63,672 nucleotides of DNA from contig CM097882.1 in assembly GCA_044892505.1 (NCBI GenBank), positions 179,180,329 to 179,244,000 of the forward strand, given 5' to 3'. This document shows, piece after piece, positions 2,676-29,946 of the stretch. Position 1 is the first letter of the stretch; every line of letters begins with the position of its first letter. The notes under the pieces are model-generated. The model did no database searches. It saw nothing but the letters and a program-made list of their open reading frames with translations, and was not told the DNA's origin. A program made the position numbers and the translations under genes. Source of the stretch: Schmidtea nova. Lineage: Eukaryota.

Positions 2676-2789
2676 ACTTTGTTCAAAAAAAAATACTTGT
2701 ATGATCCATTATTAGTATAAATGCAGTTAATTAGGTTTTTAAAATGTCATGGAGTAAGTATTTGATTTTTTATAACAATTTATTAATTT

Positions 2790-3131: not shown

Positions 3132-3148
3132 ATAAATGTATTGTAAAA

Positions 3149-4476: not shown

Positions 4477-4836
4477 TTAATAGTCCACTTCGATATTCTT
4501 TTGTATGATTTCGATTTGACTCATATTCAAAACTCTCGGTTGAACCCATTTTACCATCAATTTCTCATTGACTTCATCGGCATCGGCTTCAACAGGTTTC
4601 GTTGTTGCTGCTGTCTTGACTACTTGACGAAATGCTTTCTTTTCTTCCTCGGAGAACGATTTTATATGATTAAACCATCTTAAAGCATAGAAATAGCAGT
4701 CTTTAATTGACGAACATGCTTGAAACACTTCAACATCAGCAGTAAATTGATAATATCCATTAACATGGTTTTCATTGAACATATAATTGTTCAATTTTAA
4801 TTGACCGATATCGATTTTTAGATTACCAAATTCCAT
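4477..4836 (-). CDS. Orphan 119-aa ORF of unknown function, probably element-borne
   Basis: Intronless ORF with protein-like composition. Its upstream region shares the ACAGACGCGAG motif with the region above the orphan ORF at 46785-47375. Confidence 0.4.
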   Translation of the reverse strand: MEFGNLKIDIGQLKLNNYMFNENHVNGYYQFTADVEVFQACSSIKDCYFYALRWFNHIKSFSEEEKKAFRQVVKTAATTKPVEADADEVNEKLMVKWVQPRVLNMSQIEIIQKNIEVDY

Positions 4837-5177
4837 ATTTTCAAATTTAAATCAAATTAAGAATTTTCAATTCCACAAAATTTTTATTAATCCAATTGAT
4901 TTAGATAAACAAAAAACAAATCGTCCAAAATTAGTTTTTATCCAAAAAAATCCAATCAAAAGAAATTAAACTACAAATTCAAATCAACTCCAATTAAATT
5001 CTAAAAATCAATCGATAAAACAAAAAGAATTAAAAATCCGTCAAAATTAATTCTAATAATCAAAAGGCATTTTTAAATCAATTTTGTCCCAACCAATCCA
5101 AGAACTCGCACACAGACGCGAGCACCCTCACCAAAGAACACACATCAAGCCTCCAAAACCGCACAGCACTCACCACA

Positions 5178-5531
5178 TGTCATTTCGAACCATTTTTCTG
5201 TTTTTTTAATTTTTCGACTCAAGTTAATAAAAATACAATCAATCGAACAAATAAATGTTCAAGAATAGGCAATTGAAAAGAAAATTCAACTGAAAATGCT
5301 CTTAAATAAGAATTACGTTTTTGTAAATCATGAGGTCGAATGAGAATTATTATCATTGTTATTATTGCTTTCCGAATCCGGTTTCACGAGATAAAATTAG
5401 AGACCAATTTTTACATCATGATCGAGGCTTTTTAATGCCCCCGCTAGATATGCGATATTTTCCTTTTGAAATTATTATTTGAAATTGGCCAAAAAGGTTA
5501 TCAATATTGAAATTTCAATTATTCCTCAACA
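5178..5531 (-). mobile_element. Putative 3' LTR of a BEL/Pao retrotransposon (~354 bp)
   Basis: On the minus strand a polypurine tract GGAGAGGGGGA (5542-5532) is followed by TGTTGAGG... and ends ...AATGACA at 5178. It lies downstream of the integrase ORF. Confidence 0.6.
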
Positions 5532-5671
5532 TCCCCCTCTCCTTGACAACTTGTCAATTCGCAGTTAACATACCTAAACCAAATTAGCATTAACAATCAC
5601 AATTTGCCACGACCACGACTAATAAAATTTAATTTCATTTTATATCCCTCTTAACTATTATCAGGCGCAAC

Positions 5672-6199
5672 TCATATTTTTTGGACTTTCTTAGCCAATT
5701 CTAATGGAAAAATTTTTACAATTGGTCTGGTTTTCTCTTTACCTTGACATTCAACCTTAACGACTCTGACCTTTCCATCACTACCTGGAATCAGTTCCTT
5801 AATTCTTGCTAACGGCCATCGACCTTCTAAAATATTCGGTTCTAAAACCCAAACAACGTCACCTACTTTGACATCTCCGTTTTCTTTCCACCATTTTTGT
5901 CTTGTACCCCACATTGGTACGAGTTCTTTCTGCCACCTTTCCCGAAAATGGTTCACTATCTCCAAAATTCTTTTCCATCTTCTTCGGTAATCTACTCTTT
6001 CATTAGGGGGGATATCTTCTGTTCGATCCAGTCCAGGCCATTTTGATAAAATAAAGTCATTTGGAGTTAGTGCAATATCCTCTTTGCCGTCACTGCATTG
6101 CACTGTCAAAGGGCGAGAATTCAACAAGCCTTCTACTTTTATTAACACTGTATTCAGTTCTTCATCCGAAATGTCAGCTTCCCCAATAATTATCTTCAT
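5672..6199 (-). mobile_element. BEL/Pao retrotransposon integrase C-terminus (DUF5641-like), 5'-truncated
   Basis: VEGLLNSRPLT, ALTPNDF, RRWKRILEIVNHFRERWQKE, VKVGDVVWV, WPLARIKELIPGSDGKVRVVKV, RPIVKIFPLE are typical BEL/Pao motifs. Confidence 0.93.
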
Positions 6200-6419
6200 A
6201 GCTTTCTTCGCTATCGATTGACGAGGATTATTTGATAATCGAAAATTTTCTCACTTAATAAAATTATTATTTTTGCAGCAAACGCTTATTTTGTTACTTA
6301 TTTATTAATTAATATAATACTTAATGCTGCTACCAAGGAATCACCATTTTATAATAATAATAATAATAATAATTTTTTTGGCATGCAATCCAAGTGCAAT
6401 ACAAATGCAATACAAATGC

Positions 6420-9612: not shown

Positions 9613-9730
9613 CATATATATATATATATATATATAATTTTATTTATTATTATTATATATTATATTAATTGTCAATAAGCGAAATTCTTTAAAATAACAA
9701 TTTTAAAAAGTTATTTACTTGAAAAGGTAA

Positions 9731-10113
9731 TGTGCTGGGTTCATGGAGGGGTTAGATGAAAAGTTCTAACGAGGGCTAGGGATTCCCCATCCATGATCAT
9801 ACATAAATATTCGTAAATTCACACTCGAGCGCCCTTGATTATTTCCCTTTATAACCAAGTTGGTGATGCGCAAGGTGGTTAAACAATGATGGGCAGGTGA
9901 GCTCTATCGCTAGAACTACTCCTCATTTATGTTTACGGGTTCATCGTTGCCGTTAGAAGGACTTACGCTTTAGTCGCGAATGAGTTTAGTTGTGGTCCTC
10001 CACAGTCTTTATTATTTACTTTCACAACACTTACGTAACGTTTTATTTATTTATATACGAATACTAGTGTATTTATGAAGGAATTATTTGAATAAAACTA
10101 AATGCTGGTTACA
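9731..10113 (+). mobile_element. LTR-like repeat copy A (383 bp, TG...CA)
   Basis: Starts TGTGCTGGG and ends AATAAAACTAAATGCTGGTTACA. Colinear motif matches to 27026-27413 and partly to 14832-15090. Confidence 0.55.
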
Positions 10114-10254
10114 CTTAAGATGTTCCATTTATTCGACTAATTAGTAAACTTTTATATTAAGACATAACAAAAATGTCAGCACGAATGATATTCTATTTTA
10201 TTATTATTACAACATATGGCTAAAAATCCCCTCTGGAGGGAAAACCTCGGTCAG

Positions 10255-10770
10255 CAGGTCTCCTTCCGATAATTTAGTTAACTCGTCGACCTGATCTTGT
10301 AGTGTTTGCGCGAAGTTTCCTCTGCCTCCTTCGCTTCTGGCCGATTCGCTTGCGTTTGTGGTGCGTGCTGATGGAGGGAGCACTCACAATAACTGGTTGA
10401 GATTCTTTTTCCGTAGTTTCGGTTAGACTTTCGATATCAGTGCTGATTGAGATTACTGACTTTTTCTCGGTGATTCACCTCTGATAGGCCGTCACTGAGT
10501 GGAGGCATTTTCGCAACTCAATCTTGGTTTCCTCCCACTCCATTTTGTAGTCTTCTGCTGTTCTCTGAGCCCACTTGGTTTTGCCGATTTGATCCTTCAT
10601 CCGCGCAGGAGCAAACCAACTCTGTGCCTCTGCTTTGGCCAATTGCTCTTTCGTTTGAGCCAATTCCTTGTTCTGAGCTCTTCGGATTCTCCATAGTTGG
10701 TGTATTTCCTTTTGGTGTTGTAGCGATTCTGTCTACAATCGTGATGAAGTAAAATTCACCCACTTTAATT
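10255..10770 (-). pseudogene. Coiled-coil ORF with basic C-tail (cassette A), disrupted
   Basis: QKEIHQLWRIRRAQNKELAQTKEQLAKAEAQ...EDYKMEWEETKIELRKCLHSV...HKRKRIGQKRRRQRKLR, with in-frame stops. Confidence 0.55.
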
Positions 10771-10884
10771 ATAATTTAAAATTAGTTATTTATTCAACAT
10801 ACAAAAATCAACTTCAATAAGTAAATTAGATTTAATAGAACTTTTATTGCTAATACACATTGTTTCAACATTAATGTTTATTCT

Positions 10885-11397
10885 CTACAACCGAAATAAA
10901 ATGTGGATCTCCTGATTTATTGCCGCTCGACGTAGCCTCGCTAATGAGAAATTTGGTTGAATGGTATTACATTCCTTCCCGAATGATCGTGGTGGGACAA
11001 ATGCGTGGAGTCCTAATTTGTGGAGCTCGTCTCGGGGAATGTGTCCCCAATATATCACTTGTCTGGGCTTCCCGTCGGCATCTCTTATAATAATTAATAG
11101 TCGTCCGAACTTCAGAGAATAGGTTTGATTAGATTATGGCCATCTAGGGCCACCCCAATATAGAATGAGATTGTTGTCATCAGCTCAAATAGAAAATGGG
11201 CACTTCCTTCCGAAGTCTCGACGCCATTTATACGTGAGCGCATTTATTGTTCGCACGATTGGCGAGGGTAATTCTTTTAGCTTTCTGGCCTTGTTTTCTG
11301 TTTTCCTTGCCTCCGATGACCGTCTACACTCGGCTATCATTCGGATTATTGTTTCCTCAGACATCTGTGTTATGTCAAAATATAATTTATGATTCAC
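10885..11397 (-). pseudogene. Uncharacterised ~170-aa Trp-rich protein (cassette A), two in-frame stops
   Basis: Read through the stops: MNHK...KLKELPSPI...KWRRDFGRKCPFSI*ADDNNLILYWGGPRWP*...IIRDADGKPRQVIYWGHIPRDELHKLGLHAFVPPRSF. Homologous to 25248-25754. Confidence 0.7.
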
Positions 11398-11426
11398 CTC
11401 CTCAATAAAAAAACTAATTTACTGAG

Positions 11427-11618
11427 TATCTCCGTCGTGATGTACCATGATCGGAATAATTTATACGTTTAATTTATTTAATTATCCCTGCGCTATGTAC
11501 AGCGATCAGGGTAGATACGAATAAAAGTTTTAGATAAGTTCCTGCGCTATTTACAGCGATCAGGATAACAATATAAAATTTCGAATTGATTCCTACGCTG
11601 TCTAGAGCGATCGGGAAT
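11427..11618. repeat. Array of four related bulged hairpins
   Basis: Hairpins at 11427-11458, 11483-11513, 11540-11565 and 11589-11618, each with a 6-nt loop and a similar 3'-side bulge. Confidence 0.75.
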
Positions 11619-14600
11619 GTTAGTTATGGATCAGTTTGAGTGTCATGCAGTTTATCGTAATTTCGTTTATGTTAAAGTGTCGACTGGTCGATTTAGTTGA
11701 TGGATAAATTTCCAATCGAATTTTCGTACGACTAGTTAAGGACTTTGACCCTAATTCATTCTACAATTCGCATTGTCGTATTGGAAAAAATTTGGACTTT
11801 TCATTAACAACTCGCCTATCTCTTGGGGTAATAACTAGCCTATTCCGCAAATATATTGGGTAGAAGGTACCTTGGGCCTTCGGGATGCCCCTTGCCGCAT
11901 GGCAGCCCTCCATGTAACACACTTCATCTTTGCCGACCCATCTTATGTGCAACAACAAAAATCTAAAATTATCATCGTGAATTCATCCACTGTGATCATT
12001 CTAATCATCTAATTTATATCAATTCATAAAAAAGGTGGAACCGCCGTGAGAAACCGTTAAGCTCCACGACGACGACTCTGGCTCCCTCGCCGCGTGAGCA
12101 GTCGAGGAAGCATATCTATGGATGTGAAATATAAAATTATAAATGATAAGCATTAAGGTTCAAAATAACATGAAATTAAAATTTATATGAACAACAAAAT
12201 CATGGGTACATATATGATAATAAAAATAAAAAACCAAAATTTACTGCTCCATACCGATGAAAATGATAACTGTTGCTGATAAGGTTCTCGTAAAAACTGA
12301 TGCTTCGCAAAATACACTCAAAGTTACACTCAGAATTTAATGCTTCACAATGGGCTCTACAAAATTCCTTTAAACAAAATGCTAACTTAGTGATTTTCGG
12401 ATCGGTATTTATACTGATCCGGCTGGTCAGATTGACCAATCAGGATCAGGCCGTCCATTAAAACCTGTCTATTATTTTATTCTATTGTAAATATTATTTT
12501 ATTTCCGGTTCAGGTTTCTCGCTGGGTGGTCCTGATTTTCAAAGTAATTAATCAATTAATTGCACTTTTATTTTGATTTAATTCTTTATTTTCCTGTTTC
12601 AGGCCCCCTTGCTGCTTGTTCTAATGTAAATTTTAAATTTTCTCATTTCTGTTAATTTATTTATTTTTTATTATTTTATTCAGATTTTTAATTCTGATTT
12701 TTCTATGTTTTTTTGTATTTATTATTTTTATTTTTTGTTTTATTGTATTGTTATTTTGGTGGTTTAGACCACTTGGCGGGCCCAACAAATGTTAATGATG
12801 TCAGTCCATCAGATATCTATTTATTTCCATCATTTCTAAATGTTTTTGATCTTATTTTATTTAAATATACCTTAATTTTTGAAAATCCTTTATCCAATTG
12901 CATATATGAATATTTTTATTATAGAATTCACTTGTCATGATTTTGTTGTTTTACTGACTGACGTTTTTACTCTGATATAATTATAAATCGTTCATTGTGA
13001 GTTGTGTTGAAAGGAACTAAATCTACAAGTTTCTACAAGTTTCTTATTTGATAATATGACCTTTGCATTGATCGTGCTAACACCTTATTTATTAATGTTT
13101 TTTGGTAATTGGGATAATTTATTTATAATTATATTTTAGATGAATTTTAATACTAAATAAATGTATGTATCTTATATTTTGTTGTTAAGTCACTTACACT
13201 TCAATGGCGCACATATATTTATTATTTATCGATTTTAATATATTAAAGTTTAATTTCATTTAGACTCATATTGCCTAGTGGTACAGTATTTTTTTCATTG
13301 TATAAAATTTCCTGAATTTTAATACCGGATGTAGCGAATTATTTAATATGTTTATATTTTACAAATCATTTTTGAGTGAAGAAAAGCTATTTTGTCTTAA
13401 TGGCTCAAGATTTAGACATTCTTTCAACAAAAGAAATTCAATGAAATCTAGATTACAGCGATAAATGCATGGTGGAAGCATCATATATTGGAAAATATTC
13501 TAACCAAACGGAACTGAGTTTTTTAAATAAATGTTAAGAAATTTAAATTCTAATTACATTTTCCGCGTTGAAACTAAAAAAGAATTTGTGCACCATACAC
13601 TATCTACCATAACAATTTATAAACATTTTTAAACCAGTTGAAAGTTTTTTCTTGAAAACAAAAAATATATAAAAATTATGAAGAACTTCTAGAATTTTTT
13701 AAAATTGAGTAATGTTATCAAAAATTAAAGGACTAAATTTACTAAATAGTAATAAAGGTGCTTTTGGGTTATCTTACCTCCTTATATTTAGTAGGCATAA
13801 AAACAATATTCAACAATTTAGCAACAAAAAAACAGTTAACATCTTAAAAGTTCACTTTCTGACATATATCATGTCATCAATAATAAAAATTAATTTATGA
13901 CATCAATAATTTATCTCAAGAAAAACTACCCCCCAAACAAACATGAATTTATTAGAATTAGCTAGTGTAATAGATGATAAATAAACTAGTGTTCGGTTTC
14001 TTCAGAGACACGGCCTACTTCATAATCAAAGAGTATGCAGCAATGGTCATGCAATGCAGCAATTGGGATAAGATAACCCAAAAGCACCCTAATAAATTCA
14101 TATTTTGTTAAACTCCCATGAGTTGATGGAAGTTTTTTTGTCTTGATATTTGCTTTTTTATTAGATATCAATAAATTAAATTTTTAATATTAATATTGAA
14201 AACATCCGAATATCACATTGATTTACATGTGTTTTGCCATGAGCAAGTGAATTATTTATATTATATTTTTTGAAAACTCATGCATCAAAATTTACAATCT
14301 GTCGGTGTTAATCTCCTTTTTCATGTAAATTATTATTTATATAAATTTGTATATGTATTAAGTGTTGTACATGTTCAGTATGAAAGGACACAGATCCTGG
14401 GCCTATTATAAAAGGACCATAGATTTGTTCTGAATAATAATGATTAATGAATTTTTGAATATAAATAGCAAAAAAATAATTATGATGACATTATTTTTGA
14501 ATTTTGTGATATTGAAACAAGAAAAGGAAAATATATATATAACTTTTTATAATATTCTTATATAAATATTAATAGCTTAAATTATATAAATTTTAATCAT

Positions 14601-14831
14601 TATATTTATTAAAAATAAGTAAACCTAGTGTGAGTTCAATTAAAATATTATATAAGATATAAGTCCCGTAACCCGTCATAAATGACGAAAGTAAAATAAA
14701 TTCTAGTTGTTTTTCTTTCATTAGACTTTTATTCTGAATTTTAAAAAAATAGGAATCATAAAAAAACTTAATCTTAATTAATATTAAAATAAAAATTAAT
14801 AAAAAATTATATATATATATATATTGGGAAG

Positions 14832-15551
14832 TGTGGGTGTTGTAAGAAAAATTATTATTGCCCCTAAGGATTAATACAACCCATAGCCCATCATAAATAT
14901 TAAACTACCTAAATCGTTTACCCATAGTTATTCCATAGCTAACTATGCTTCTCAAAAAATATACAAATAACCTCTCTTAACCCCCTTTGGTTTCCTCTAC
15001 AACTGTCCTTAATTTGCCTTTTCCCATCACACAAAATTTAACTGTCAGTGAAGTTTAGTTTGTTCTCACCGCGACTTTATAAACCGCGAACTTATGAATG
15101 GCAACTGCACATTCTTTAATCCTCCGTATGGTTTTCTTGAATTAATTTTAGCTGCGTCTGGAGTATGACTGTGAGTGGATATCTTTATTATGTTTTCATC
15201 TTCTATGTGACATCAAGCTCGACATTTCGGCATATCATATTCATTACATCTCCAGATTGTATTTGTTGTAATAGTTTTTTCTTTTAGAATTGTAAAACCA
15301 TCTACTACGAAGAGATTTCCATTTTTGCAACATTTTACATATTCTAGGCATTTTAGTGGTAACTGATATTTTAAAAAATATACCATATTAAATATACTGG
15401 ACTACATGACGTTAATTATAAAGGACAGTCGAAGTTATATAATACTTTAAATTAAAATTAACAAACCACAACGTTGCATTAAAATCAATTTAATCTAATT
15501 TAAATTGATGTCAATTAAAAAAAGGGTTATATACCAGTTTTGGGTGGTACA
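14832..15551 (+). mobile_element. LTR-like repeat copy C, interrupted by a MULE FLYWCH fragment
   Basis: 14832-15090 aligns by eye with 27413-27150 (catagtt.gc...gggta.acga...tgggttgta.taatcc.tag.g.caataataatttt). Ends GGTGGTACA like copy B. Confidence 0.45.
15100..15386 (-). pseudogene. FLYWCH zinc-finger fragment of a MULE/Mutator transposase
   Basis: GNLFVVDGFTILKEKTITTNTIWRCNEYDMPKCRA*CHIEDENIIKISTHSHTPD; the internal TGA is probably from CGA. Confidence 0.75.
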
Positions 15552-15554
15552 AAA

Positions 15555-15758
15555 TAATTAATTAATTAATTTAATATTTTAATATTTTAATAATTTATTT
15601 ATTTAATTAATATAGAATAATTAATCAAACGGAATATTAAAAGAAATGAAAATAATTAATTAATTAATTTAATATTTTAATATTTTAATAATTTATTTAT
15701 TTAATTAATATAGAATAATTAATCAAACGGAATATTAAAAGAAATGAAAATAATTAAT
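15555..15758. repeat. 98-bp tandem duplication
   Basis: Two near-identical AT-rich copies containing tagaataattaatcaaacggaatattaaaagaaatgaaaat. Confidence 0.85.
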
Positions 15759-16083
15759 CAATTGAATTTATTAAGGCCAGCCTAAGGAGATTAAAGCGTT
15801 CAGATCTTGATTTAATTCCAAAATTATTTTCAAATTCGAATAATTTTATTTTTTCGCAAATATCTTCAAACCTGGAATTTTTAGGGAGAAAGCTTCTTAA
15901 TGATCTCCATTTTCTTTCCATAGTATTCGTGTGGATTGAAATCTCGTCAATTTTAACAAAGGTCACAGAATGATTAACACTGTAATGAATATACCCAAAA
16001 TCTTTCAATCTGTTATATCCGCGCCCTTTGTCGGTACATATTGTGGCGTTTTGTTCAACAGACTGTAAAATAAACTGAGTCAA
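15754..16083 (-). mobile_element. Merlin (IS1595/ISXO2-like) transposase C-terminal fragment
   Basis: ICTDKGRGYNRL..FGYIHYSVNHSVTFV....IHTNTMERKWRSLR matches the TD..Y / H..VNHS..FV / HTN.IE..W pattern. Confidence 0.85.
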
Positions 16084-16202
16084 TACTTGGATAAAACTTG
16101 GATATTATAAATAATAACAATGGCGCACGTTTATGATCGATACTATTATTAACAGCTCACGGTTTTCAGTGCGTGATATAGAGCGCACGCTTATTGAAGT
16201 AA

Positions 16203-16244
<42 letters not shown>

Positions 16245-16247
<3 letters not shown>

Positions 16248-17360
16248 TCCCATCTTAGCCATCTTCTACATGAACTTTATAGAATCTAAGATCATATCTT
16301 TTTTTGAGAACAAAATACTTTTCTGGAAACGATACATCGACAACATCTTCATAGTCTCCACAATTCCTCTCAATCAAATCCTATCACACGCAAATTCTAC
16401 TAACACCAACATACAATTCACTTTTGAAACACCGAACACAGAAGGTAAAATACCGTTTTTAGATACCATGGTAAGTTTTACAAAAGGCCAAGATACACTA
16501 AATGCAAACACCGAGCTATATTCTAAAGGTTTACATAGTAGTCATATCCTCCCATGGAAAAGCCACGTTCCACTTCAACGCAAAATCGCATTACTAATAG
16601 GAGAAAGAAAAAGATCCATAAGAAACTGTTCAGGCGCAAACAAAATACAAGAAACATTAGAAAACTTCAAAATACGATTCCTCCAAAATGGATACCCTGA
16701 AGAATTTGTAAAGAAATACTTCCTTAACGAACCATACTACAATAAACGCAACAATAGGAAACGCCAGAAACACAATAACAATAACAAACACACAACATAT
16801 TTAAGATAACATTTCCTAAATGACACTACAGCCAACAAAATCACCAACATTTTTAATCAAACAGATTTGCCTATCCACATCTGTCCAACGTTCATAACCT
16901 CTGCACCGTTAAAATCACAACTCCGAAAGCCACCAATTTCCAACATCTCCAAACATAAATGTCTTTGCCGTTCCACAACCCGATGCTTTTGCTTTTCCAA
17001 AAATATAGTATATAAACTTTCTTGCCAAAAATGTGACGCTACTTACATAGGAGAAACACATAGAACTTTTCGCACCCGACTTAATGAACACACTAAAAAC
17101 AAAACTAGTAGTTATTACGAACACTGGAGAAAGTACATAAAACAACTCCATCTATAGAAGAAACAAATTCCAGATTCTACAAGAGGAATTCAAAATTTCA
17201 TTACAAAAATTAGCTTCCGAGACTTTTTACATAAAAAAATACAAACCATCCATCAACATTCAATTCGCACGAAAAAATTAAAATAAATTTTTTTCATCCA
17301 ATAAAATCATTATAAAATATAAAAAAATAATTAAGGTTACTATGTAGGATTAAGTTAATA
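16245..17360 (+). mobile_element. Penelope-like element 1 (RT C-terminus plus GIY-YIG endonuclease), 5'-truncated; its 3' end resumes at 20002 after a Tigger insertion
   Basis: WKRYIDNIF, GKIPFLDTMV, KWKSH-like SHVPLQRKI, LQNGYP, then KNIVYKLSCQKCDATYIGETHRTFRTRLNEH. Begins at a (TA)n tract. Confidence 0.92.
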
Positions 17361-19999
17361 CATGTGAACTCGTTTAATATCACCTCGGTTATTATCACGA
17401 CCTGTTTAATATCACTAAAACTCAAAATCCACTTGCCAAACATTATTAATCAATACATTTTTACTCGGTTAATATCATCTTGCATAATATCCATTTCCCG
17501 CTTATTATCATTTATTATAATCACTTATTATATTTTTTTATTTTGATATTTCAAATTCACTTAATATCGTGATTTTTTATGAATTTTTTTATAATCTTTT
17601 TTACCAAAGTTCACACAAAATAAGTTTAAAAAATTTAAAACTGAAACTTCAAATATAATTTAAATTTCCTATATTTTGTAACTGTTTTCTTATATTTCTT
17701 ATAAAAACAAACTTATTGCACAACAAAAACGCAAGATGGTGATAGAAAACCGTGAAAATCATATTTAAACAATTTTCCTATTTCGTTTTTCAAATCTTTT
17801 ATAAAACGCATTTATTTGCACATAAATACATATATTGAATGTACTCATCCAAAATGTAACAGGTGAGCATTTAAAAAGTAAACACACCTAAAATTGATGA
17901 TAATGCGCAGTTGGTTAATAACATTAGATGCAGTTCTGTCAATATATATTTTACCTAATAAAGTATGTTTTTATCTAATAAAGGTTTTGAAATACATATC
18001 TAATCAGAAACTTGATAATTTTAATTTAAAATACATATATTTATTGTAAGCAAGCAAAATCTACAGGGTTTTGATATAAACAGAGGTAAATTTTAATAAG
18101 TTTTCTTAATTTACTTGAGATTAAAGTGATTGTTGTTTTAATACACATGTATGTAATTTATAATTTCTTACAAGGGCTAAATCAAAAATGACAGAACGTA
18201 AACGAACAGAATTAACTGTAAAACAAAAATTGGATATTAGAGCAGCTTGTGATGGACCACTAAAACAAACGTATGCAGCTGTTGGTAAGAAATTCAACAT
18301 TGATTCATCAACAGTGAGCAAAATTTATAAAAACAAAAGTGCATTATCTGATGTTGTAAACTTAAACAGCAATAGAAAAAGAAAACGGCATAGCAGAGCT
18401 GAATATGTAGATAAAGCATTGTATAACTAACATTAGCATCAGCGGTGAAATACTGCGTGTCAAAGCTGAAGCCTTTGCTAGAGATCTATCCGTAATAAAT
18501 TTTGTGGCCAATAATGGATGGTTAGATAGATGGAAGAAAAGATTTGGAATCGTATATAAAAAAGCACATGGGAAAAAGTTGATGCAGATGTTCCTGCAGC
18601 AGAAGAATGGTTATCTACAACCTTGGTCGATGTATTCCGCCTCTATCAAACAAAAGATATTTACAACGCGGACAAAACTGGCCTTTTGTGGCGTGCAATG
18701 CCGAATGGTTCACATGTCTTTAAAGCAACTGAACTTTCTGTAAAGTATCAAAAGAAAGAGTTACTATTTTACTTTGTGCCAGTATGGATGGTGAGAAGCA
18801 ACTAGTTTTAGTAATTGGCAAATCTGAAACACCGCGTTGCTTTCGAGGTGTTAGACAGTTACCTGTAAACTATAAAAATAATTTAAATACCTGTATGACG
18901 TCCTCTATATTCGAAGAATGGCTACGTCAATGGGATAAAGAACTGTATTCTCAAAGTCGGAAGATTCCTTTAGTCTTAGACAATTGCTCTGCGCATCCAA
19001 AGTTAAAATTTAATAACATCGAATTAATTTTCCTCCCACCCAATGTAACATCACTAGCTCAACCGTGTGATCAAGGTATTATCCGCAATTTTAAGTTCCA
19101 TTATCGTCGATTACTTGTATTGAAATTACTAGCAGCAATTGAATCTTCCACTGCTCAAATACAAGCTGGGCAAATAGTAAAAAACTTAATCCATTGGATG
19201 CGGATCTTTAATAAAAGAAGCACGGAACAAGGTTACCAGCATAACTGTACAAAATTGTTTCAAAAAGACAAACTTTTGTAATAATGCTCCAGATTTAATT
19301 GAAAGTGACGAACTTGCTTTGAATATAAATGAACTTGATTTTGATTTTAATGAATATTTGGAAATGGATATCAATGAAGAATGTTCAGAACCTTTGAATG
19401 ATCAAATGATAGTGGAATCCATCGTGGAACAAAAAAAGCAAAATAAAAATAATAATGTGGCAAGTGATGATAGCGACGATGAAACAGAATCAACTGCAAC
19501 AACTATAACCAACAATATTGCTTTAGAATCTTTTAAAAATATACAAATGTTTTTAACAAATAACAATGCTGCAGATGGGACTGTTTAAATCAGTTGGATA
19601 ATATAGTTCAGCACACTATATTAAAAAATGCAACCAAAACATGTCAATTAACATTAGAAAAATGGTTCAAATAAATTTCCGAGCGTATATATGTATAATA
19701 TACATTGTATATGTATAAATAAATAAATGAATTATTACTAGTCAATATATTGGATGTATATTAAAAATAAATAAATTATTACTTAGTAGTCAATATAATG
19801 TCTTTTTTTCATAAATAAATACATAAATAAATTCTCTATTGAAATAAAATTTCGGTTATTGTCATGAATAATGATAATAATCGAGTTGTCGGTTAATGTC
19901 ACGTATGTGGATATTAAGCGAGTTTCGGTTATTATCACGACCCGCTTAATATCATGATTTTTTTGGAACCGTAAGCATGATATTAAGCGGGTTCGCCTG
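17361..19999 (+). mobile_element. Tigger/pogo DNA transposon (2639 bp) with decayed CENP-B/DDE_1 transposase (18188-~19590)
   Basis: TA TSDs at 17359-60 and 20000-01. TIRs catgtgaactcgtttaatatca vs rc caggcgaacccgcttaatatca. Fragments RTELTVKQKLDI, ANNGWLDRWKKRFGI, IYNADKTGL, LVLDNCSAH, FLPPNVTSLAQPCDQGII. Confidence 0.93.
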
Positions 20000-20001
20000 T
20001 A

Positions 20002-20075
20002 TAACGATTGAATTACATACTTGATAAAGGCTGTGCCGAAATATTGTGTTGTTTATAAAAAAATTTTGATCTATA
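20002..20075 (+). mobile_element. 3' end of Penelope-like element 1 with a hammerhead-like motif (20017-20049)
   Basis: AUAC-UUGAUAAA-GGC(UGU)GCC-GAAA-UAUU-GUGU followed by gtttataaaaaaattttgatctata, near-identical to one arm of the palindromic family. Confidence 0.75.
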
Positions 20076-21937
20076 TATATATATATGTGTGTGTGAATGT
20101 ATTGCAAATAATAATTTGACCATAATATTGAAGGCAAATATTAAAAATATATTTTAATGAATGGTAAAATGAATTAAAAATTTAAAAATGTAACAATAAT
20201 TGAAAAAATATTTTTTCGAAATTAGTCGTATAACTTCATTTTAACAGTAAATATTATAATAAATCTCAATCTCTACCAAAATATTTGACATTCAACTGGT
20301 TCAAATAAAATGTTTTATAATTACTGGCAAAATTACAAAATTAATATATAAATTTAATTAAATAAGTAATTATTGATGAATTAATTTACCTAGGATAGCA
20401 TTCATTTGAGATGGAGATATTTCAGGGTTCTTTTCTAAAAATTCCATATATTAAACTATAATATTTCATTATTATACTATATAGCTTAACAAAAGTATTC
20501 AAGAAAATATTATAATTAATATTCAATTGGTCAAAATTAATGTCGAATTATTCAGTAAAAGATGGTTTTTAATAGCCTTAATAAATGTCCTTATAATCGT
20601 AAAATTGTGATTTAAAGGTGTAATTTAAAATAATTCAACTATATTTTTTCACTTATTATTTTTAGTTTACTGAGATTCGAAAATGATTGCACAATTATGA
20701 TTTTTTTTAAATGGTAATAATGCGTTGGAAAATAAGCAGTTACTTAAAAAGAGAGCTCAAGAATACTATAAAAACACAAATCTAAGAGAAAAGACTGTTT
20801 TTTTCTGAAATTGTTAATAAATATATACAATTTAATTTAATAAACAGTTTTTAAAAAATCATAAGGGATTTTATTTATTTATTTTGGATTCAAACGACAA
20901 AATACTCGTTTATATATTAGAAAATTTAAAAAATCAAATTAGATACATTTGTGGTATACTAAAACGAAGAAGAAATTAGAAAAATTTCTTAGTGAAGCGG
21001 AATTTTGAATAAAACATGAAAGTATCGAAATTTATTATTTTGAATAATGCATGTAAATGTGTATTTTAAATTCGAATTTAATTGAAAATTCCCGGTGCAT
21101 CAGTGAACATTTAACATGCTCCATTTTGGCCCATTCCGTCGCTATATTGTTTTAAAAACGATTCGTCAAATTTATGTTTGCACATATCAACCGTTATACA
21201 GTGAAAATATCTCTTGATTTAACATTAACTTTTTTTTCAAAATTTATGATACAATAATCAAATTACAAATGATTAAAACTATCAGAAAATACCAAATTTT
21301 ACAACTTGTTCAATATCGGTTATTGAAAATATTGAATATCAGCATAAAATTTAAACCGAAACACAAAAATTCACGTGGTTATTAGTTTGAGGAAAAAAAG
21401 GAAAGATAGAAATTCCGATCGATTTTAATGAATCCGATTCAATCATTGAAACTAATTTGATTGGCTGAATTTTTAATCATGTTAATAACGCACTTTTACA
21501 CACATTTACATTCTACAAGTATACAAGCACTCAACAAATGCAACATTTTAAAGTCTAATTTATTCTAGAAATAATTTGTATGAAATTTTAAAACTACATT
21601 ACATATTTTCGTAGTAAATTTTCCCAATACAAACATCTGTGCGAATGTTGGCATAAATATGAAGCTGAAAGTCGTTTCGAAAAGCACACAGACCGTCATG
21701 TTTAGGACAACACACAGTTTATATGCACATTGAGACAACCTATTGAAGAAAATCACACAACCTGGACATTTAAAAAATTATATTTATCGATGAATATTTT
21801 TCATAAATGTTTATTTCGTAAATAAATTTTCTCAACCAAAGTAAGAAAATTATTTTATTTTTATTTTTTATTAAATTTTTAATAAAATCGATTTAAATCA
21901 ATATTTTCGAAAAAAAGGGAATTCTGTTTTTTTTCAA

Positions 21938-22141
21938 ATGTCAACTCCGCAAATCTGTGCCAAATGCTGTAAACCATTTACAGCTGGACCTATTCTTTCA
22001 GCTCTGGATAAAAAATGGCATCCTTCTTGTTTTGTCTGTGTCAATTGTAAAGGCGAATTAGCTCGGTCTTCGTTTCATGTGAAAGATGATTCTCCATACT
22101 GCGTTAATTGTTGGAAACAACTCTACCAACCCAGATGCACG
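21938..22141 (+). CDS. Two-LIM-domain protein, exon 1 (68 codons)
   Basis: MSTPQICAKC...KKWHPSCFVCVNC...PYCVNCWKQLYQPRCT is a complete LIM domain. GT donor at 22142, phase 0. Confidence 0.93.
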
Positions 22142-22851
22142 GTATTTATTTATTTATAATATATAATCGATGCAAATAAAATTATGCGTTTAATATTAAT
22201 ATGCATTTTCAAATTGAAACAATAAAAAAAATTTCAATTTTGAGAGCATTTTCAAAATACAAATTTTTTATTTTGTTTGAGTTTCTATTTAAACTTTAAT
22301 TGCAAGATTTTATTTTCAATTTTATTATATTTTTTTGTAAATTCAATGAGAAAATATTTTTTAAAAAATCATCAATAAACATATTTTTTAAGAAACTTTT
22401 TTATCTTCCTCACCGTTAATCTTTGTTCGATTTCATATGATTTCAGTTTTTAGACAAAAGATTAAAAAAATTTTCATTTTGTTCAAAACTAATTTTCAGC
22501 TGTCGAAAATTTGAGATAATAATTTTGATTTATTGTCAAAAAAAATAAAAATACATATTTTTATTAATAACATTTTTTTTTATTAAAATCCAAAATTTAT
22601 TTAACATATACTTAAAATAAATAAAATTCGGCGTGTTGGAAAATGTAGCACAATGTACCTAAGGGTTCCAATGAATTTGGATACATTAGATAAAAACGTT
22701 AAGGTTAAAACAACAACTTTTTTTTTGAAAAAAATAACATATGCGAGCCATATGTCAATTTCATTTCGATGATTCCAGGATTATTTTTTATAGAAAATTC
22801 CTAATTATTTTTATAGCACATTCTAAGTTATAATTGATTGTTTACTTTCAG

Positions 22852-23010
22852 GGTTGTCATACTATAATTGAACCAGAAGAGCAATATGTAACCTACAATG
22901 ATAATGCATATCACAAACAATGTTTCACTTGTGCTAACTGCAAACAAACTTTGGCTGGAAAACAATTTGTTATTCAAGATGACAAATTCTTGTGTCCAGA
23001 GCATGTGTAA
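22852..23010 (+). CDS. Two-LIM-domain protein, exon 2 (total 120 aa)
   Basis: Acceptor tttactttcag, phase 0. GCHTIIEPEEQYVTYNDNAYHKQCFTCANCKQTLAGKQFVIQDDKFLCPEHV* completes LIM2. Confidence 0.92.
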   Translation, partial: GCHTIIEPEEQYVTYNDNAYHKQCFTCANCKQTLAGKQFVIQDDKFLCPEHV

Positions 23011-23817
23011 AATGGAATTCATTTCCAATCGAATATAGAATAAACAAAATGATAAATAATTAAGCAATTATTAATTGTAAAATTTACTATAGATTTTTAG
23101 TGCTTTTATTATTATAATAATTTATCATTTGTTTTAAAATGACTTATGATGTGATTTAATGGATTTGGTTGTTTTAATTTAATTAGAACTTTTAAAATAT
23201 ATTGAAAAATTTCTTCAAATTTTATTTTGATTTAAATCTTTTACTTAAATGGCAATTTAGAATTATCCTCGCAATTTGTTTTCACTCTATAACTCGCAGA
23301 TCACCCAGAAGTGGTGAAACGTCATTATATTACCGCCGCGAAGGACTATATAGAAATTAAAACAAACTCAAGAAAAAGCACTATCACGACAACAAGGGGA
23401 ACATTCACACATTCGTAACTAATAATGTTCAGCGGTTGAACCGTAACAATATTGGATTATATCCACAGCCTAACGTGAAATTGAACCGAGGGCAAATGAA
23501 ATTCCACCCAAACGTAAAAAGTAAGGATTGAATGTTTCAGGAGAAACTTAACAAAACAAGCGAAAATAATCGGACGATTGCTCCCAATAAAGAAAATAAC
23601 TTGTTGGGCTGATAAGACCAAAATTTACAATAGAAATCAGCAGAAAATCGGCACAATAAAGTTAAATAATGAGAAATAATTAAATTGAATAAAAATAAGG
23701 AACAAATTTACATAGCAAATTTATAGGAAAAAGTAAAGGAATTATTAATAGTAGAATAAATTACTGTGGAAGGAAGTAGTATTAAAAATATAGTGTTAGT
23801 GTTCGGGTAGTGAAAAT

Positions 23818-24370
23818 CTAGTCAGGTTCATATCTAGGGTGCTGTAGAACACCTTCATAAATTAACTTACCACGATCATGTACCCGTGAAAACTCTAGAT
23901 TCGTTTCACATTGGGATTGTAAATGTCGGCGCGAGCCAAGTGGACACGTGAGCGACATTGGGGTAACTACTCTCACTTCTTCACTTACTTTTACTCCCAC
24001 ATGGTCTATTTTTATATCTTCTAAAGCTTCTTCCAACGTTTTTGGCTCTCTGATCTTCAAGGCTACCGAGAGAGTTTGGTTTCTCACACCTTCTATAAAG
24101 GCATGTATCATCATTTGTTCTTTTTCTCCTTCGTAACTTAGGCATCACATTCTTACTCTTTTCGAAATCTACTACATTCTCATCTCTTTCGTATCTGGTG
24201 TAGTTGAGAATATCTACAGTTATTGAGGTCTTTAATCTTTTAACCTCTACGATTTTGAGAATCAGTTCTTCGTATAGTTCTGGTTGTGATAATGTCTCCT
24301 AAGCATTCAATCTCTTTTACGATTTCTTCGTCAAAGTATTTTAAAAATACTTTAATTTTCTCTTCATTCG
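23818..24370 (-). pseudogene. Gypsy-type Gag (capsid) fragment
   Basis: NEEKIKVFLKYFDEEIVKEIEC...MMIHAFIEGVRNQTLSVALKIREPKTLEEALEDIK fits the FI.G...P.TL.EA Gag motif; frameshifted. Confidence 0.65.
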
Positions 24371-24960
24371 TTACCAAGTTGTGTTAGGGACTATTTCATT
24401 CAATAAATCGGAGTCGTATAGACCGGAAAGATGGTTCGTCTGTAATCTCAGATGTTGGGCAAATGCGCAACGTTTCCTTCGGCGCCCAGAGCCTATGTGG
24501 TTTTTGAGGATTGGAGTCGTGGTGTTCACAACACTGGGTATATTGACTTTTTCCTCGCTTATCTCGTCCGGCGCGTGACTCTCTGATTTATGAACGACTC
24601 TCGCCCATTTTCCAAAAGTGATGGGCTTAATCTCGGGCTTCAAATACTTTTTGATATAGGTTTTAAAACCTGATTCAGGCACCTTTTTAATTCAAACCAC
24701 ACATCATCTAGTTCTAACTGCACGTCAACGAGAGCTAGTTGGCCTCTCTCGGTTTTCTTTAACTGGGACTGCATTTGCGCTAGAGAGAAATAATTTGTCT
24801 GTAACCTGTCGATCTCTCTTGCTTGTCGAGCTATTCTAGCTTTGAGATTCGCCACTTACTGATACGCGATTCTTCGTTTTTCCCGTCGTCTTTTCTTTTC
24901 TAATGTGGAACAAATCTTGTGGGTCGAATTATTATTACAAGATACAAAATTGGATCAACA
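24371..24960 (-). pseudogene. Coiled-coil ORF with basic C-tail (cassette B), disrupted
   Basis: ANLKARIARQAREIDRLQ...VDVQLELDDVWFELKRCLNQV...NHIGSGRRRKRC, homologous to 10255-10770. Confidence 0.55.
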
Positions 24961-25247
24961 GTAATTAGTATAGTTATCAGGCGGGAATTCGCGGAGGTTG
25001 CAATGCTCGAATAACGTAATTACTCCTATATCTATACGAATGGTGTATGCGTTTGATTCTGATTTAGTCAAAAAGGAAAATATTAATACCCATATGCATT
25101 TGCTTTCGAATTAAACATTCGAAATGATCAAGAAAACTAGAAACCAAAACAAATACAGTTTAAAATAGAAAACATTTTATTCCTAATAACAAGGTTAATT
25201 TCATCGTCTGGTCTAAAGTTTACTCTGATCGTAATTGAGAAAACTTC

Positions 25248-25754
25248 TTAGATGGCTATTGCTGATCTCCATTCCGAATTCGATGTCTTTGAATCCAAGT
25301 TCAGTGATACTGGATGTTGATGGATCCACTTCGAATTTGACTGTCGAAATCGTGGATGAACTAGCAGTGCCAAACACAAGCTGTTGAATTCCCACCAGGG
25401 AATACAGCCAGAGTATAAGATCCATTTAGGTCTGTTCTTATCGTCTTTGTGCATGATAAACCACGTGGAGTTTTCAATGGAGACTTCGCGATCTTCTTCG
25501 AAAGGCCACTGGGGACCACCGCGCCACCATATTTCCTCTTAGGGATCAAGATCCCATATCGAAAAAGGAGCTCTGACCCGAAATTCGGTCCTCCGATAGC
25601 GCATCGCCGTGTCAACATTTTGTGAGATCTTGTGAGGCAGAGGCTTGAGAGACTTACAGATCTGCCATCAATATTCTGAATCTTGTCGAGCTGCTGCTAT
25701 ATCTGGAATGTTCACATTCTCACTTTCCACTAGTGAATTAGTATTATTTTCCAT
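25248..25754 (-). pseudogene. Uncharacterised ~170-aa Trp-rich protein (cassette B), two in-frame stops
   Basis: MENN...IAAARQDSEY*WQICKSLKPLPHKI...RYRRTEFRVRAPFSIWDLDP*EEIWWRGGPQWPF...DKNRPKWILYSGCIPWWEFNSLCLALLVHPRF. Confidence 0.7.
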
Positions 25755-27025
25755 TTTTAAATCTAAAATTGGTATAGAAAGATTTGCAATTTGGATGCTT
25801 GATTTACAATTATTTATGTGATTGGGTAACTCGCACTATGTGAATGACTTCAAACTCCTGATATTTTTTGATGCGTTGCTGTATTAAGCAGACACAATGT
25901 AGCGAGTAGATACTAGTCGGTCAATTAGATGTGTTTTTATGTGATCTCGCATTTGTATTTCGAGGTTGTTGACCATGCTAGATTTGCAGTCGTCGCAGAA
26001 TTTCATTAGAATGATTTCGATCGGCAGTAGTCGAGCGATTAATATTTCTTCCATTAAAAATGATTATACTTCTCTCGTAAGTTGAATTTATAAAAGAATT
26101 TATTATAAAATATTACCAGAATTTGAGTTAGTAAACGTGTTGATTCAATGATATTATACGAACATTTGTCATTTAATCATTATATTCGCTTGGTCAACTA
26201 TTAGATTTAATAACCCTGCGAAAGTCTCGGTGGAGGGCACTATCGTTATATATTCCCAAATAACTTTAACTCTGAACGCTGATAAATTTTGGGTTCACTA
26301 TGTCACTCGAACTTTATTATGGAATGATATGACGGGGTTTTCGAGAGTGCTGTGATGACTGGTTATGAGATGGCTGTCATACAATGTTACCTAAACTGCT
26401 GTCATTGGGTTCTAAGTTTTACTGCCCTATGTGATTTATTGAAAATGCATCTCTGCCTAATACTTGAATATCTCTATGTCAAGTATTTCGCTTGATGTTT
26501 CGGAAGTTTTTTTGCAACCGTTTCATGTGCAATCCCTCCATTTCCTGATAACCATTCGGTTGAGTTTAGTTTCTTTCCTCACCACGCCCGCATAACCCCG
26601 AGGGTCACAACAGTACGGCTATCAACCTTGTGGCCATGAACCACTAAGGCTTCTTGTCTATGATTGGATTTAAGGAGCATTAAAAATGATATGAGGGTTT
26701 ATCCGCAGAATATTAAAATAATGAATAACTATAATGTAGTTTCAAATCACCTTTATTGTCCAAGTATTGAAATAGTGTCAAAATTCACAATTACACGTTA
26801 ATTGACAAATATTGAAATGACACTAGATAAGACTAGATTCAATTATGCTTTATTTTGTGTAATTTCAATTAGATGATTTCATATTTTGCATAATCAATAT
26901 TTGAAAAATCATTATTCTTTTTGCTCGTTCAAATGATTCCCGATTAAACTAATTTTGGGAGGTGAATACGCCACGAGTTCTCAATCGGTTAAAAATGCTT
27001 GGGACGCATTGTCGGTTATAATTTT

Positions 27026-27413
27026 TGTACCACTGTCTTATTAAATTATATAAAATGGCGAGGGAGAAGTAAAAATTGAAGGATGATTATATAGATGTTT
27101 TTAAGAATAAATAAGTGTAGATCTGAAATAGGAAAGGTGATAGAAAGCTAGACAATAATCACACGAAAGGACCATAAAATAGATATGTGTGTAAGTCATT
27201 CTATCGGCAGCAGGAACCCAAAAGAGAGGATAGAGTAAGGAGTAGTTTTGGTAACAAAACTCGTCTACTAACTACTAACCACCGTGTAGAGTACCAACAT
27301 AGTTTGCGAAGGAGCAACTGCGGGTACACGAGTGAGGCATTTTAACATTTATGATATGGTGTGGGTTGTAGTAATCCCTAGAGACCAATAATAATTTTGT
27401 ACCAGCCCATACA
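27026..27413 (-). mobile_element. LTR-like repeat copy B (388 bp, TG...CA)
   Basis: Minus strand TGTATGGGC...GACAGTGGTACA. Shares ggacca, gtaagtc.ttcta.cggca, aggagtagtt, taaccacc, accaac and aatccctag in order with copy A. Confidence 0.55.
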
Positions 27414-28151
27414 CGTCAAGAAATTAATAAAATACAAAATAAATTAGAAAACATTTAAATCAACGAAACGATAAATAAAAGCTAATTGGTTAGTAAATAA
27501 TATAATAAAACTCACCGATTGCGGTAGACAAACTATTTTAATTGGCTAGCTCAATTACCAAATAGGTATATAAAGAGCTAGCCAAAACAGTTAATTTAGC
27601 ATTATTATATTCGAGAATCTTTGTTTTTTAACTAATCATAATGGTTTGATTGAACTGCACACAATTGTGTATATTGGAACAATCGAATAATGTAATTTTA
27701 ATTCTCTATTTTTAATTTGGATATTAGTTTCGGTAAACTCTCATTTCTTTTTCTCTGCTCAAAAGTAAAAGGTTGTTGAGCTTGGCAACTACCCAGCGAG
27801 GAGAGTGGGAATTACATAGAACATAGAGAGTAGCTTTAAAGTCATTTACTTAAAGGATGACAGGCATTAAACTGGCAATAAGTATAAATAAATTAAAAAA
27901 CGAAATTAGTATTTAATGAATTATATTCAGTCACCAGTGTAGAATTGATTCCACAAAATCGTACGAATTATAAATTACCATACGAGTGTCGAACCGTGAT
28001 ACTACCACCGCAAATTTCTGAATAATAAATAAATTACGAACGGGGAATTTGCATATTCGTTCATCACGTTACTTTACTGTTAATAGTCGTCGTAAGTGTG
28101 ATTTGCATAATTAATTAAAATCAATTATTAATTCAATCGAATAGCGAAACT

Positions 28152-28760
28152 ATGGAAGGAGAAATCTTGATGAAAATATGACAAATTAAAGACGAGATCA
28201 CGTCCTAGGGGACCACTCACCATCAATTACATCCGGTGATCCCAAAACTAAGACACAGATTCTACTCCGTCAACAGAAAAGCTTCCATACATTATTGATA
28301 TTTTTACGAAAAGCCGAGGAGATCATGAAAGATAAATCCGTAGGTCGATTAAAAAGACGTATAATCGAATAAGAGAGTATTCATTTCACTCCGACCCAGA
28401 AGAAAAAAGCCCAGACTAAGGTTGAAAGGTATCGTTGAGCAAATGAAGAGTTAAAACTTGAATTACGGGCCACATGATTAGAGTTGAAGAATCGCATATT
28501 TCAGATGAATCGCAATTTTATTCAGAATAAATTAACCATAAAAATTAGACCTTTCTCACTAGGAAAATGGGACAGCTCTCATGCAAAGCCACAATCAGCA
28601 ATTTCATAAGTAATGAAGGTACCCTATGAAACGTCATTGGGTCCAATGAAAAGAAAAGAAGAAAACAGTGCCAGTTACAAGAGACTATGTTTGATCTCCA
28701 GTTGATTCGCCAATTCAAGTTTTTAGATGGGTTAACCGAAGAGAAACTGATCGACGAAAT
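28152..28760 (+). pseudogene. Third decayed copy of the coiled-coil/basic-tail ORF
   Basis: AQTKVERYR*ANEELKLELRAT*LELKNRI (compare VQLELDDVWFELKRCL) and IGSNEKKRRKQC (compare IGSGRRRKRC). Confidence 0.5.
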
Positions 28761-29946
28761 TGTTGTATTGTGATGTATCTAAACACATGAGTTAGTTTTT
28801 GAGTTAGTTTAGTTCGTTCTTGAAAAAGGTTACAGTAGGATAATTTTGAGATGGGTGTACCTGGGAACCTAGAATTACGAAAATTGTTTAAATACATCAA
28901 TGAAAATAACCAACGAGAAGGAGTATATAAGTCGCTACTTATTGAAACTGAAAAAAACAGTTTTACTTCCTAAAATTGGTACACAAAAAGCGAATTTACT
29001 TCACCTCATCCTATACACTGACGTAGAACAAGCGGTGGCCTGGCCAAGGCCAAGTTTTGTTCAAATTAATTAAGTTTGAAATCACATTGTATTTTATTTG
29101 AAATTCGATATTGTATTCAAAGACGAAAAATAAAATAATTTTCTTTTATAACATAAATCAATATTTTAATACACGAACTAATCAGATATGCTGCACGGAT
29201 AGTTTTGTATTTTAACCGAATTTATAATGTTATGCTTCAAATATTTGATAATACTCTACACATTCACGAATTAAGTTAATATAAATATGAATATTTGATA
29301 TGCACTCTTCAGAATGACCACTGGGTTCGAAATCTTGAAGCGCGGGGTTCATAAACTCTTGTCTGACAAATTTTCAATAATACGAACTTAAAAACTGAGA
29401 TTTTCAATACGAAATCGAAGTTTGCGCCCAAATATTTATTTTAATAAAGATAAAACCCCGCACTTCGACCAAAATTGAGTCGTCTAAAATATATGCTCAA
29501 AAATAGTGGTCGGATAGATTTTGAAAATAATTTGTTTTTGATTGCTGTGGTTTGCCATATAATTAAATACGTTTGGTCGAGCAAAATAATTTAACTTGTT
29601 TTTCATAAAGATTTATGATATTAATGATTGATATTTATGTCAATTTCTTTTGAAGACTCGCTTCAAACTCAACCGTGAACGTGCTAAGTGAAAAGTTGAG
29701 ACCGATTTTCCGAAAATTTTGCAGCAATTTGGATTTTTGTTCACAATGATTATGATGCTTGTTTTTGAATTATGAATTTATTGTCTATATGTAAAATTGA
29801 TTTTGGAGAAGACCGAATATCTTTGTCTTCCATATGCTTTGTGGTAATGGTGAAATTGATGTGTCTATAAGGTTATAATAACACTTATATGTATTAATAG
29901 TTTTATTATAATATTTTGTTTTAATTATATTTGTTTTACTCTAGAG

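Follow-up and report, generated by a model that had tools for sequence, protein, structure and literature searches.

In a 63,672-nt stretch of the Schmidtea nova genome (assembly GCA_044892505.1, contig CM097882.1, positions 179,180,329 to 179,244,000; hereafter the window), three pieces, A, B, and D, are by sequence homology decayed copies of one conserved gene of 145–200 aa, ORF-C, which is encoded together with a Trp-rich open reading frame (ORF), ORF-W, inside the long terminal repeats (LTRs) of a Burro-like giant gypsy element. That ORF-C is a selected, LTR-encoded gene we regard as virtually certain. The window is AT-rich animal DNA packed with broken mobile elements, from an assembly of 1.25 Gb; its three copies are dead, and their value lies in pointing to the family.

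Burro elements and their accessory ORFs are already known, whereas the gene pair inside the LTR is undescribed in the text searched. LTRs are treated as non-coding, and in the exceptions known to us the coding part precedes the LTR promoter. A pair of orphan genes under purifying selection downstream of the promoter would make every LTR, including the abundant solo LTRs, a potential protein-expressing unit, and would require R or U5 to be very long. Selection on ORF-W and ORF-C spans subfamilies with saturated synonymous sites. Should ORF-C act as an RNA switch, a Rev-like regulator would exist outside Retroviridae.

Homology of the ORF-C copies

The peptides that an earlier sequence-only reading had quoted from A, B, and D were all found where it had placed them, and its proposal that the three are homologous, rather than alike through compositional bias, was borne out. 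Because direct pairwise similarity was weak (about 21–29% identity; E 0.011 for B versus D), profiles from intact genome copies were used instead, and the ORF-C profile contained only intact natural copies from elsewhere in the genome. It scored 150.1 bits with A, 52.8 and 46.7 bits with the two frames of B, and 63.3 bits with D, far above the controls: the best of 1000 shuffles per piece reached at most 13.0 bits and reversed pieces at most 2.4 bits. Scores below 0 bits were obtained for three further helical ORFs from the element that encodes ORF-C. With A's own subfamily removed from the profile A still gave 62.3 bits, and a profile from that subfamily alone detected B (38.5 and 42.0 bits) and D (28.9 bits). 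A six-frame scan of the window with the ORF-C profile matched A, B, and D only.

The conserved core of ORF-C comprises F46, M51-K52, R60, E71, A74, E78, C82, T87, and L95, continuing with I99-R100-P101-x-T103 and W107. The LE....W.ELK.C motif proposed earlier was partly right, but its W is no conserved column, and the proposed IG..RRR tail is found in the window copies and in two of the subfamilies, whereas two others have RKSHAQRR there. The limits given to copy A (10770-10255) were corrected to 10732-10207.

The shortness, breakage, and low pairwise identity of the window copies would suit a similarity produced by coiled-coil or basic composition, or by frames open by chance in LTR DNA. This explanation retains almost no probability given the shuffle and reversal controls, the invariant residues outside the coiled coil, the substitution ratios far below 1, and the recurrent linkage to ORF-W described below; selection, linkage, and the controls together rule it out.

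No relatives of ORF-C outside this genome were detected by a word-index protein search with one copy, by searching the alignment against longer proteins, or in metagenome and viral contigs, and a HMMER search over 1.84 billion representatives returned 0 matches. Among PDB sequences the best E was 0.97, Pfam gave weak coiled-coil matches only (E 0.01 or worse), and the best value in the ESM Atlas was 0.88, with low recognition. Searches for ORF-W homologues likewise gave no match; all of these collections are poor in flatworm repeats, so that the lack of matches is no proof of absence from other planarians.

The parent element and its LTR gene pair

A 1.3-kb probe from A revealed a large repeat family (968 candidates, 40 of which were scored). 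Thirty related loci were examined, 8 of them without one resolved end, and a 4-bp target duplication was present in 18 of the 22 copies with both ends resolved. Two of the four loci without a duplication continue into common internal sequence, and this shared sequence located full-length elements. Two young elements of 29.8 and 29.7 kb have 3125-bp LTRs that are 99.9% identical, each LTR carrying ORF-W (159 aa) and ORF-C (198 aa counted from Met), both intact and in sense orientation; a further full-length element is 28.9 kb long, with an LTR identity of 97.7%. The existence of full-length elements with paired LTRs led us to reject a terminal inverted repeat DNA transposon.

In one natural frame of 5430 aa, Pfam identified zf-CCHC, a Monjiviricetes-type fusion glycoprotein, protease, reverse transcriptase (RT), RNase H, integrase, and ankyrin repeats, the fusion glycoprotein standing in frame ahead of the protease. 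RING and TRAF/MATH domains were identified by Pfam in separate ORFs, with MATH/TRAF downstream of pol. BIR, BCL2-like, SUMO-like, and dUTPase-like modules were not listed by Pfam at E 0.001, HHpred, the source of several reports, being more sensitive. By domain content and organization, the parent is a Burro-like giant gypsy element, matched to Burro/GYPSM1 as reviewed in PMC6431247. Section 7 of that review describes Burro/GYPSM1 as planarian giant gypsy-like LTR elements with accessory ORFs and high copy number, and our element resembles them in its length of about 30 kb, CCHC Gag, in-frame fusion glycoprotein between Gag and protease, order of protease, RT, RNase H, and integrase, ankyrin and MATH/TRAF domains, accessory ORFs, and abundance. 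It differs from that description in that MATH/TRAF is here a separate ORF downstream of pol; in addition, the accessory ORFs and domains named in that section include no gene inside the LTRs.

A protein search yielded 9628 first-look candidates, of which 150 were scored, figures that indicate abundance and give no copy number. Searches with B and D reached further LTR subfamilies: the LTRs of subfamilies II, III, and IV are 3.1–3.6 kb long, with the same termini and 4-bp duplications, and the primer-site sequence is the same in III and IV. Their ORF-C proteins are 21–34% identical to that of subfamily I, to which A belongs, and at least four LTR subfamilies keep ORF-C.

ORF-W and ORF-C are present on the sense strand in both LTRs and in solo LTRs, where they lie 3' of a conserved CCAAT/TATA pair and 5' of the primer site. 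The sequence-only reading had recognized a retroelement accessory gene with a helical N-terminal part and a basic tail, which stands, but had missed that the cassette is inside the LTR. The linkage of ORF-C to the Trp-rich ORF that it suggested recurs elsewhere in the genome. With overlapping loci merged and 17 loci without tabulated coordinates excluded, there were 141 ORF-C places, 138 of which had enough upstream DNA; ORF-W was upstream at 107 of the 138, downstream at 3, and on the opposite strand at 2. Among places found by ORF-C alone, ORF-W was upstream at 63 of 84.

Both genes are under purifying selection. The ratio of nonsynonymous to synonymous substitution rates (dN/dS, Nei-Gojobori) was 0.07–0.30 for ORF-C in 20 of 29 chosen pairs (nine saturated) and 0.09–0.37 for ORF-W in 14 of 19 (five saturated), the pairs being drawn from intact frames and mutually non-independent. 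Protein trees of ORF-W and ORF-C from 16 copies with both genes agreed in their deep splits, with the finer order unsure and the branches long.

Several loci showed further features of these elements. At L124:7513-8025 and L126:1658-2170, the LTR matched A only in its first 420 and last 237 bp and ORF-W was divergent; LTR interiors appear to have been swapped or to be evolving faster than the ends. At L180 and L181 (G000:C2:292697641-292706302), ORF-C stands beside an antisense Cys-rich, zinc-finger-like ORF in each of two copies separated by about 5.4 kb, possibly a tandem duplication. The final internal ORF ahead of the 3' LTR (L201:8575-9177, + strand; L070:250-816, − strand) encodes about 190 aa with a signal-peptide-like start, a coiled coil, one hydrophobic segment, and a basic tail, and had no Pfam match.

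Predicted expression and possible role of ORF-C

All four subfamilies have an inverted CCAAT and a TATA motif about 350–400 nt into the LTR, 1.6–2.4 kb upstream of ORF-C. A donor-like site lies behind this promoter in 65 of 76 promoter-bearing copies (background 19.7%), and an acceptor-like AG stands at most 14 nt from the ATG at 10/10 ORF-C and 6/9 ORF-W starts tested (background 17%). The acceptor-to-ATG offsets (1, 2, 5, 6, 7, 8, and 14 nt) keep no single frame, which fits a non-coding leader. The same acceptor signal was found at 3 of 4 internal accessory ORFs; a RING-finger ORF between the primer site and Gag (L199:6265-6723, + strand) also has an acceptor-like AG before its ATG. AATAAA occurs within about 60 nt of the ORF-C stop in 24 of 32 rows (background 13%) and after the ORF-W stop in 10 of 32. 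The simplest reading of these motifs predicts one leader spliced to either ORF-W or ORF-C and an RNA ending behind ORF-C, and the LTR is probably a spliced two-gene unit. The two genes are accordingly predicted on the R/U5 side, with either an R of about 2.3 kb or a U5 of about 2.7 kb.

A second promoter near the LTR 3' end was considered as the genomic start and rejected, a TATA-like site being present there in subfamily I only; fusion of ORF-W to ORF-C by splicing was rejected as well, the end of ORF-W having no conserved donor. Contigs of unrecorded kind from four runs, compared with a young LTR, gave no joint at the predicted sites among the matches listed, which is evidence neither way.

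AlphaFold, given a 32-row alignment, modelled ORF-C (mean predicted local distance difference test score 77.9) with helices at residues 3–44 and 48–95, interrupted at a conserved F-x-P. Behind IRPxT the model has another, short helix, from which a disordered linker leads to the helix bearing the basic tract (144–174). The N-terminal helices are long and amphipathic in the model. At least 7 R/K residues in 12 were found in 28 of 32 intact ORF-C copies, and the Arg-rich helix is kept in four of four subfamilies. A basic leucine zipper factor was rejected: the coiled coil is N-terminal, the segment behind the basic tract is not conserved, and no conserved leucine zipper directly follows the basic region. 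ORF-W was modelled as a small alpha/beta domain (predicted template modelling score, pTM, 0.67); Foldseek found no match to it in PDB or BFVD at E 0.001, and VIA-align gave a best Z of 2.7, which shows neither a new nor a different fold.

Near the LTR 3' end, about 240–390 nt behind the ORF-C stop in A and behind the predicted poly(A) signal, a two-hairpin RNA element is kept across subfamilies. In an alignment of 14 sequences chosen for diversity from 65, from which the structure was also derived, 18 of 30 pairs showed changes on both sides, a count reached by 23 of 500 shuffles; 91% of cells pair, compared with 76% when shuffled and at most 44% when slid, and the covariation score was 0.555 against 0.267 and at most 0.142, the shuffle test being inflated by relatedness. 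The element contains invariant GGAGUAGU and CCAAC segments. Rfam returned nothing significant on five LTR loci, this element included. The predicted intron of subfamily I holds a weaker hairpin pair and, in addition, two hairpins with a UGUAHAUA motif, which we take to be Pumilio-type.

We tentatively favor a model, short of calling it probable, in which ORF-C is an oligomeric Arg-rich RNA binder that favors unspliced, full-length element RNA in the manner of Rev/Rex. Transcription would start about 400 nt into the LTR, and a short leader would be spliced to ORF-W or ORF-C, giving small mRNAs that end just behind ORF-C. Genomic RNA would have to skip leader splicing and read through the poly(A) signal of the 5' LTR; in that LTR the primer site is preceded by a poly(A) signal as well as by a splice donor and two acceptors, and the element would need to suppress all of them to make genomic RNA. 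Complex retroviruses run such a switch with a small protein, translated from the RNA that is spliced by default, that combines a long coiled coil with an Arg-rich helix. The N-terminal helices of ORF-C would mediate self-association, and its Arg-rich helix would recognize a hairpin unique to RNA that is unspliced or reads through; candidates are the covarying 3' element and the intron hairpins. Binding would stabilize or export that RNA. Oligomerization, nucleic-acid binding, and nuclear location of ORF-C, which the sequence-only reading had also suggested, are putative.

Several observations weigh against this model. The splice and poly(A) sites were predicted from motifs by criteria chosen post hoc, copies within a subfamily are non-independent, and the backgrounds for these sites were not AT-matched. 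ORF-W was not detected at threshold at 31 of the 138 ORF-C places, some of which are decayed or interrupted copies. The global confidence of the ORF-C model is low (pTM 0.32), subfamilies III and IV lack the C-terminal helices seen in I and II, and no leucine-rich export-signal pattern of the familiar consensus classes is common to the subfamilies, although such a signal is among the features that define Rev. The basic tract could equally be a nuclear localization signal (NLS) or a DNA-binding patch. As for the RNA, the intron hairpin pair covaries weakly (3 of 20 pairs), and the UGUAHAUA hairpins were not found in five subfamily II–IV LTRs checked, apart from one unstructured match, while the covarying 3' hairpins are neighbors of the primer site, and their function might simply be Gag-mediated packaging or priming.

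The main alternative is that ORF-C, with or without ORF-W, is a nuclear regulator of transcription or chromatin, either a Tax/Tas-like LTR transactivator or a factor against PIWI silencing, with the basic tail as a localization or DNA-binding signal. We consider this somewhat unlikely. The basic tract does fit an NLS, and an early spliced mRNA from the LTR alone would suit positive feedback, as with foamy-virus Tas/Bet. However, the promoter is simple and alike across subfamilies whose proteins share only 21–34% identity, and no conserved leucine zipper follows the basic region. Burro is PIWI-silenced in a related planarian according to passages of PMC8532177, which also speaks for such a regulator.

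An action of ORF-C and ORF-W on the host (apoptosis, ubiquitin, or RNA defense) in the way of the element's other captured modules, with no role on element RNA, is improbable in our judgment. The element carries RING, TRAF/MATH, and ankyrin modules, and section 7 of PMC6431247 mentions host manipulation as a proposal for Burro, but those modules are recognizable host domains, whereas ORF-C has no family match below E 0.01 and its Arg-rich helix is kept in all four subfamilies. We give still less credence to a role of ORF-C in particles or replication, in which it would act as packaging factor or RNA chaperone and help to copy and transfer a minus strong-stop DNA of about 2.7 kb. The distance from the promoter to the primer site downstream, about 2.7 kb, implies that this DNA is unusually long; Arg-rich helices bind RNA in many capsid proteins, and a structured element flanks the primer site. 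Set against these points, Gag already has zinc knuckles, and regulators are the more typical products of a small mRNA spliced separately.

The RNA-binder model can be extended to a joint reading, which as a whole we hold to be possible but doubtful: Burro-like elements would be complex retroviruses of the gypsy lineage whose LTR is a two-gene regulatory unit, with an early spliced mRNA from the LTR alone encoding a convergent Rev/Rex-like switch protein, ORF-W as its partner of unrecognized fold, and solo LTRs supplying both in trans. ORF-C resembles human immunodeficiency virus (HIV) Rev/RRE, human T-lymphotropic virus (HTLV) Rex/RxRE, and human endogenous retrovirus K (HERV-K) Rec in being a small protein with an Arg-rich helix and helical oligomerization surfaces, for which a spliced mRNA is predicted, in an element with conserved LTR hairpins. 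Unlike them, it has a much longer coiled coil and a gene entirely inside the LTR, downstream of the promoter. It is not filed as a member of the Rev family, as it has neither homology nor a conserved leucine-rich export signal. Mouse mammary tumor virus sag, HIV nef, and foamy-virus bel/bet also have accessory coding in or over the LTR, spliced from a leader, but these sit in U3, ahead of the LTR promoter, and their expression is from the 3' end, whereas ORF-W and ORF-C are downstream of the promoter, on the R/U5 side, so that a solo LTR could express them.

Passages of PMC7264820, which also cover the role of Rev, describe additional ORFs of plant LTR retrotransposons that are conserved, have no assigned function, and have been proposed to regulate retrotransposition. 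ORF-W and ORF-C resemble these as conserved extra ORFs, but according to those passages the plant ORFs belong to the internal region, where most lie between pol and the 3' LTR; neither "in the LTR" nor "within the LTR" occurs as a phrase in that paper. The literature searched contained no description of genes in Burro LTRs, including the relevant passages of PMC11410931, PMC13238120, PMC13524379, PMC8532177, and PMC7264820; the primary genome paper, figures, and Repbase were outside its scope and may show these ORFs.

Copies and neighboring features in the window

The features of the three copies are summarized in Table 1. Copy A sits in a solo LTR, as judged by its sharp ends, TG..CA termini, target duplication, and full-length relatives, with whose LTRs it shares ends and promoter. 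Its ORF-C has lost the start codon and has two in-frame deletions, one stop, and a frameshift near 10315.

Table 1. Features of copies A, B, and D in the window (window coordinates)
Feature	Position	Strand	Basis or remark
Solo LTR, Burro-like, subfamily I, 3055 bp (copy A)	9733..12787	-	TG..CA ends; homology breaks sharply at both limits
4-bp target duplication of solo LTR A	9729-9732 and 12788-12791		adjoining LTR ends
Inverted CCAAT + TATA (predicted LTR promoter)	12406..12441	-	about 350–380 nt from LTR 5' end; motif pair at same place in four subfamilies
Predicted splice donor closing short leader exon	12239..12246, GT 12244-12243	-	donor-like site
Two hairpins with UGUAHAUA motif, predicted intron, subfamily I only	11485..11565	-	
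ORF-W copy A, two internal stops	10885..11366	-	257.9 bits; acceptor AG directly before ATG (11364)
ORF-C copy A, decayed	10207..10734	-	coiled coil, IRPxT..W motif, Arg-rich helix; acceptor AG 10734-10733
AATAAA, predicted poly(A) signal, just behind ORF-C stop	10197..10202	-	
Conserved two-hairpin RNA element near LTR 3' end	9818..9972	-	18/30 pairs change both sides
ORF-W remnant copy B, divergent subfamily	25329..25676	-	94.4 bits; 32% to A's ORF-W
ORF-C copy B, two frames, cut at 24385	24380..24894	-	profile match
Gag-like fragment of different high-copy repeat, truncates B, outside cassette	23978..24388	-	
Deleted LTR remnant with copy D	27418..28873	+	ORF-W stub to 28320, then ORF-C
ORF-C copy D, stops + frameshift	28307..28773	+	basic tail + C-terminal helix in second frame

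Copy B is, on its homology, a piece of a divergent LTR broken by an unrelated repeat fragment. The sequence-only reading had remarked that B abuts a Gag fragment, but this is accidental, the Gag piece belonging to another repeat that cuts B. All 21 loci examined for the Gag-like repeat matched only 23978-24388, one reaching 24407; B's relatives L032 and L034 continue with other sequence where the Gag-like piece begins, and tblastn of this piece against the parent element gave no match. A linkage of B to the neighboring Gag was rejected on these grounds.

Compared with L064, copy D is missing about 480 bp at 28320; its flanks are shared with L062 and L064. The stretch deleted in D corresponds, read by eye, to a decayed ORF-W in L064, L171, and L172; by this comparison D, too, derives from the ORF-W/ORF-C cassette, the deletion having taken most of ORF-W. 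The LTR origin of B and D is supported by homology, neither showing recognizable LTR termini in the window. A remnant of a related LTR 3' end (27197-27415, + strand) stands immediately before the copy D remnant, and another lies at 14816-14953 (− strand).

Elsewhere in the window, exons of a host gene, which we take to be Smad4-like from its peptides, extend over 33095-60900 (+ strand), with introns filled with mobile elements, and an exon near 22028 is presumably LIM-like. An apparently young open frame of 586 aa at 30372-32132 (+ strand) resembles, as far as we can judge, a hAT transposase. At 44111-46324, long inverted arms, 89–99% complementary, flank element remains that we assume to be Penelope-like RT/GIY-YIG. 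Pieces at 1824-3478 (+ strand) and 4278-6282 are presumably Polinton-like capsid and protease, and in the same region a BEL/Pao-like integrase piece sits between perfect 66-nt inverted arms.

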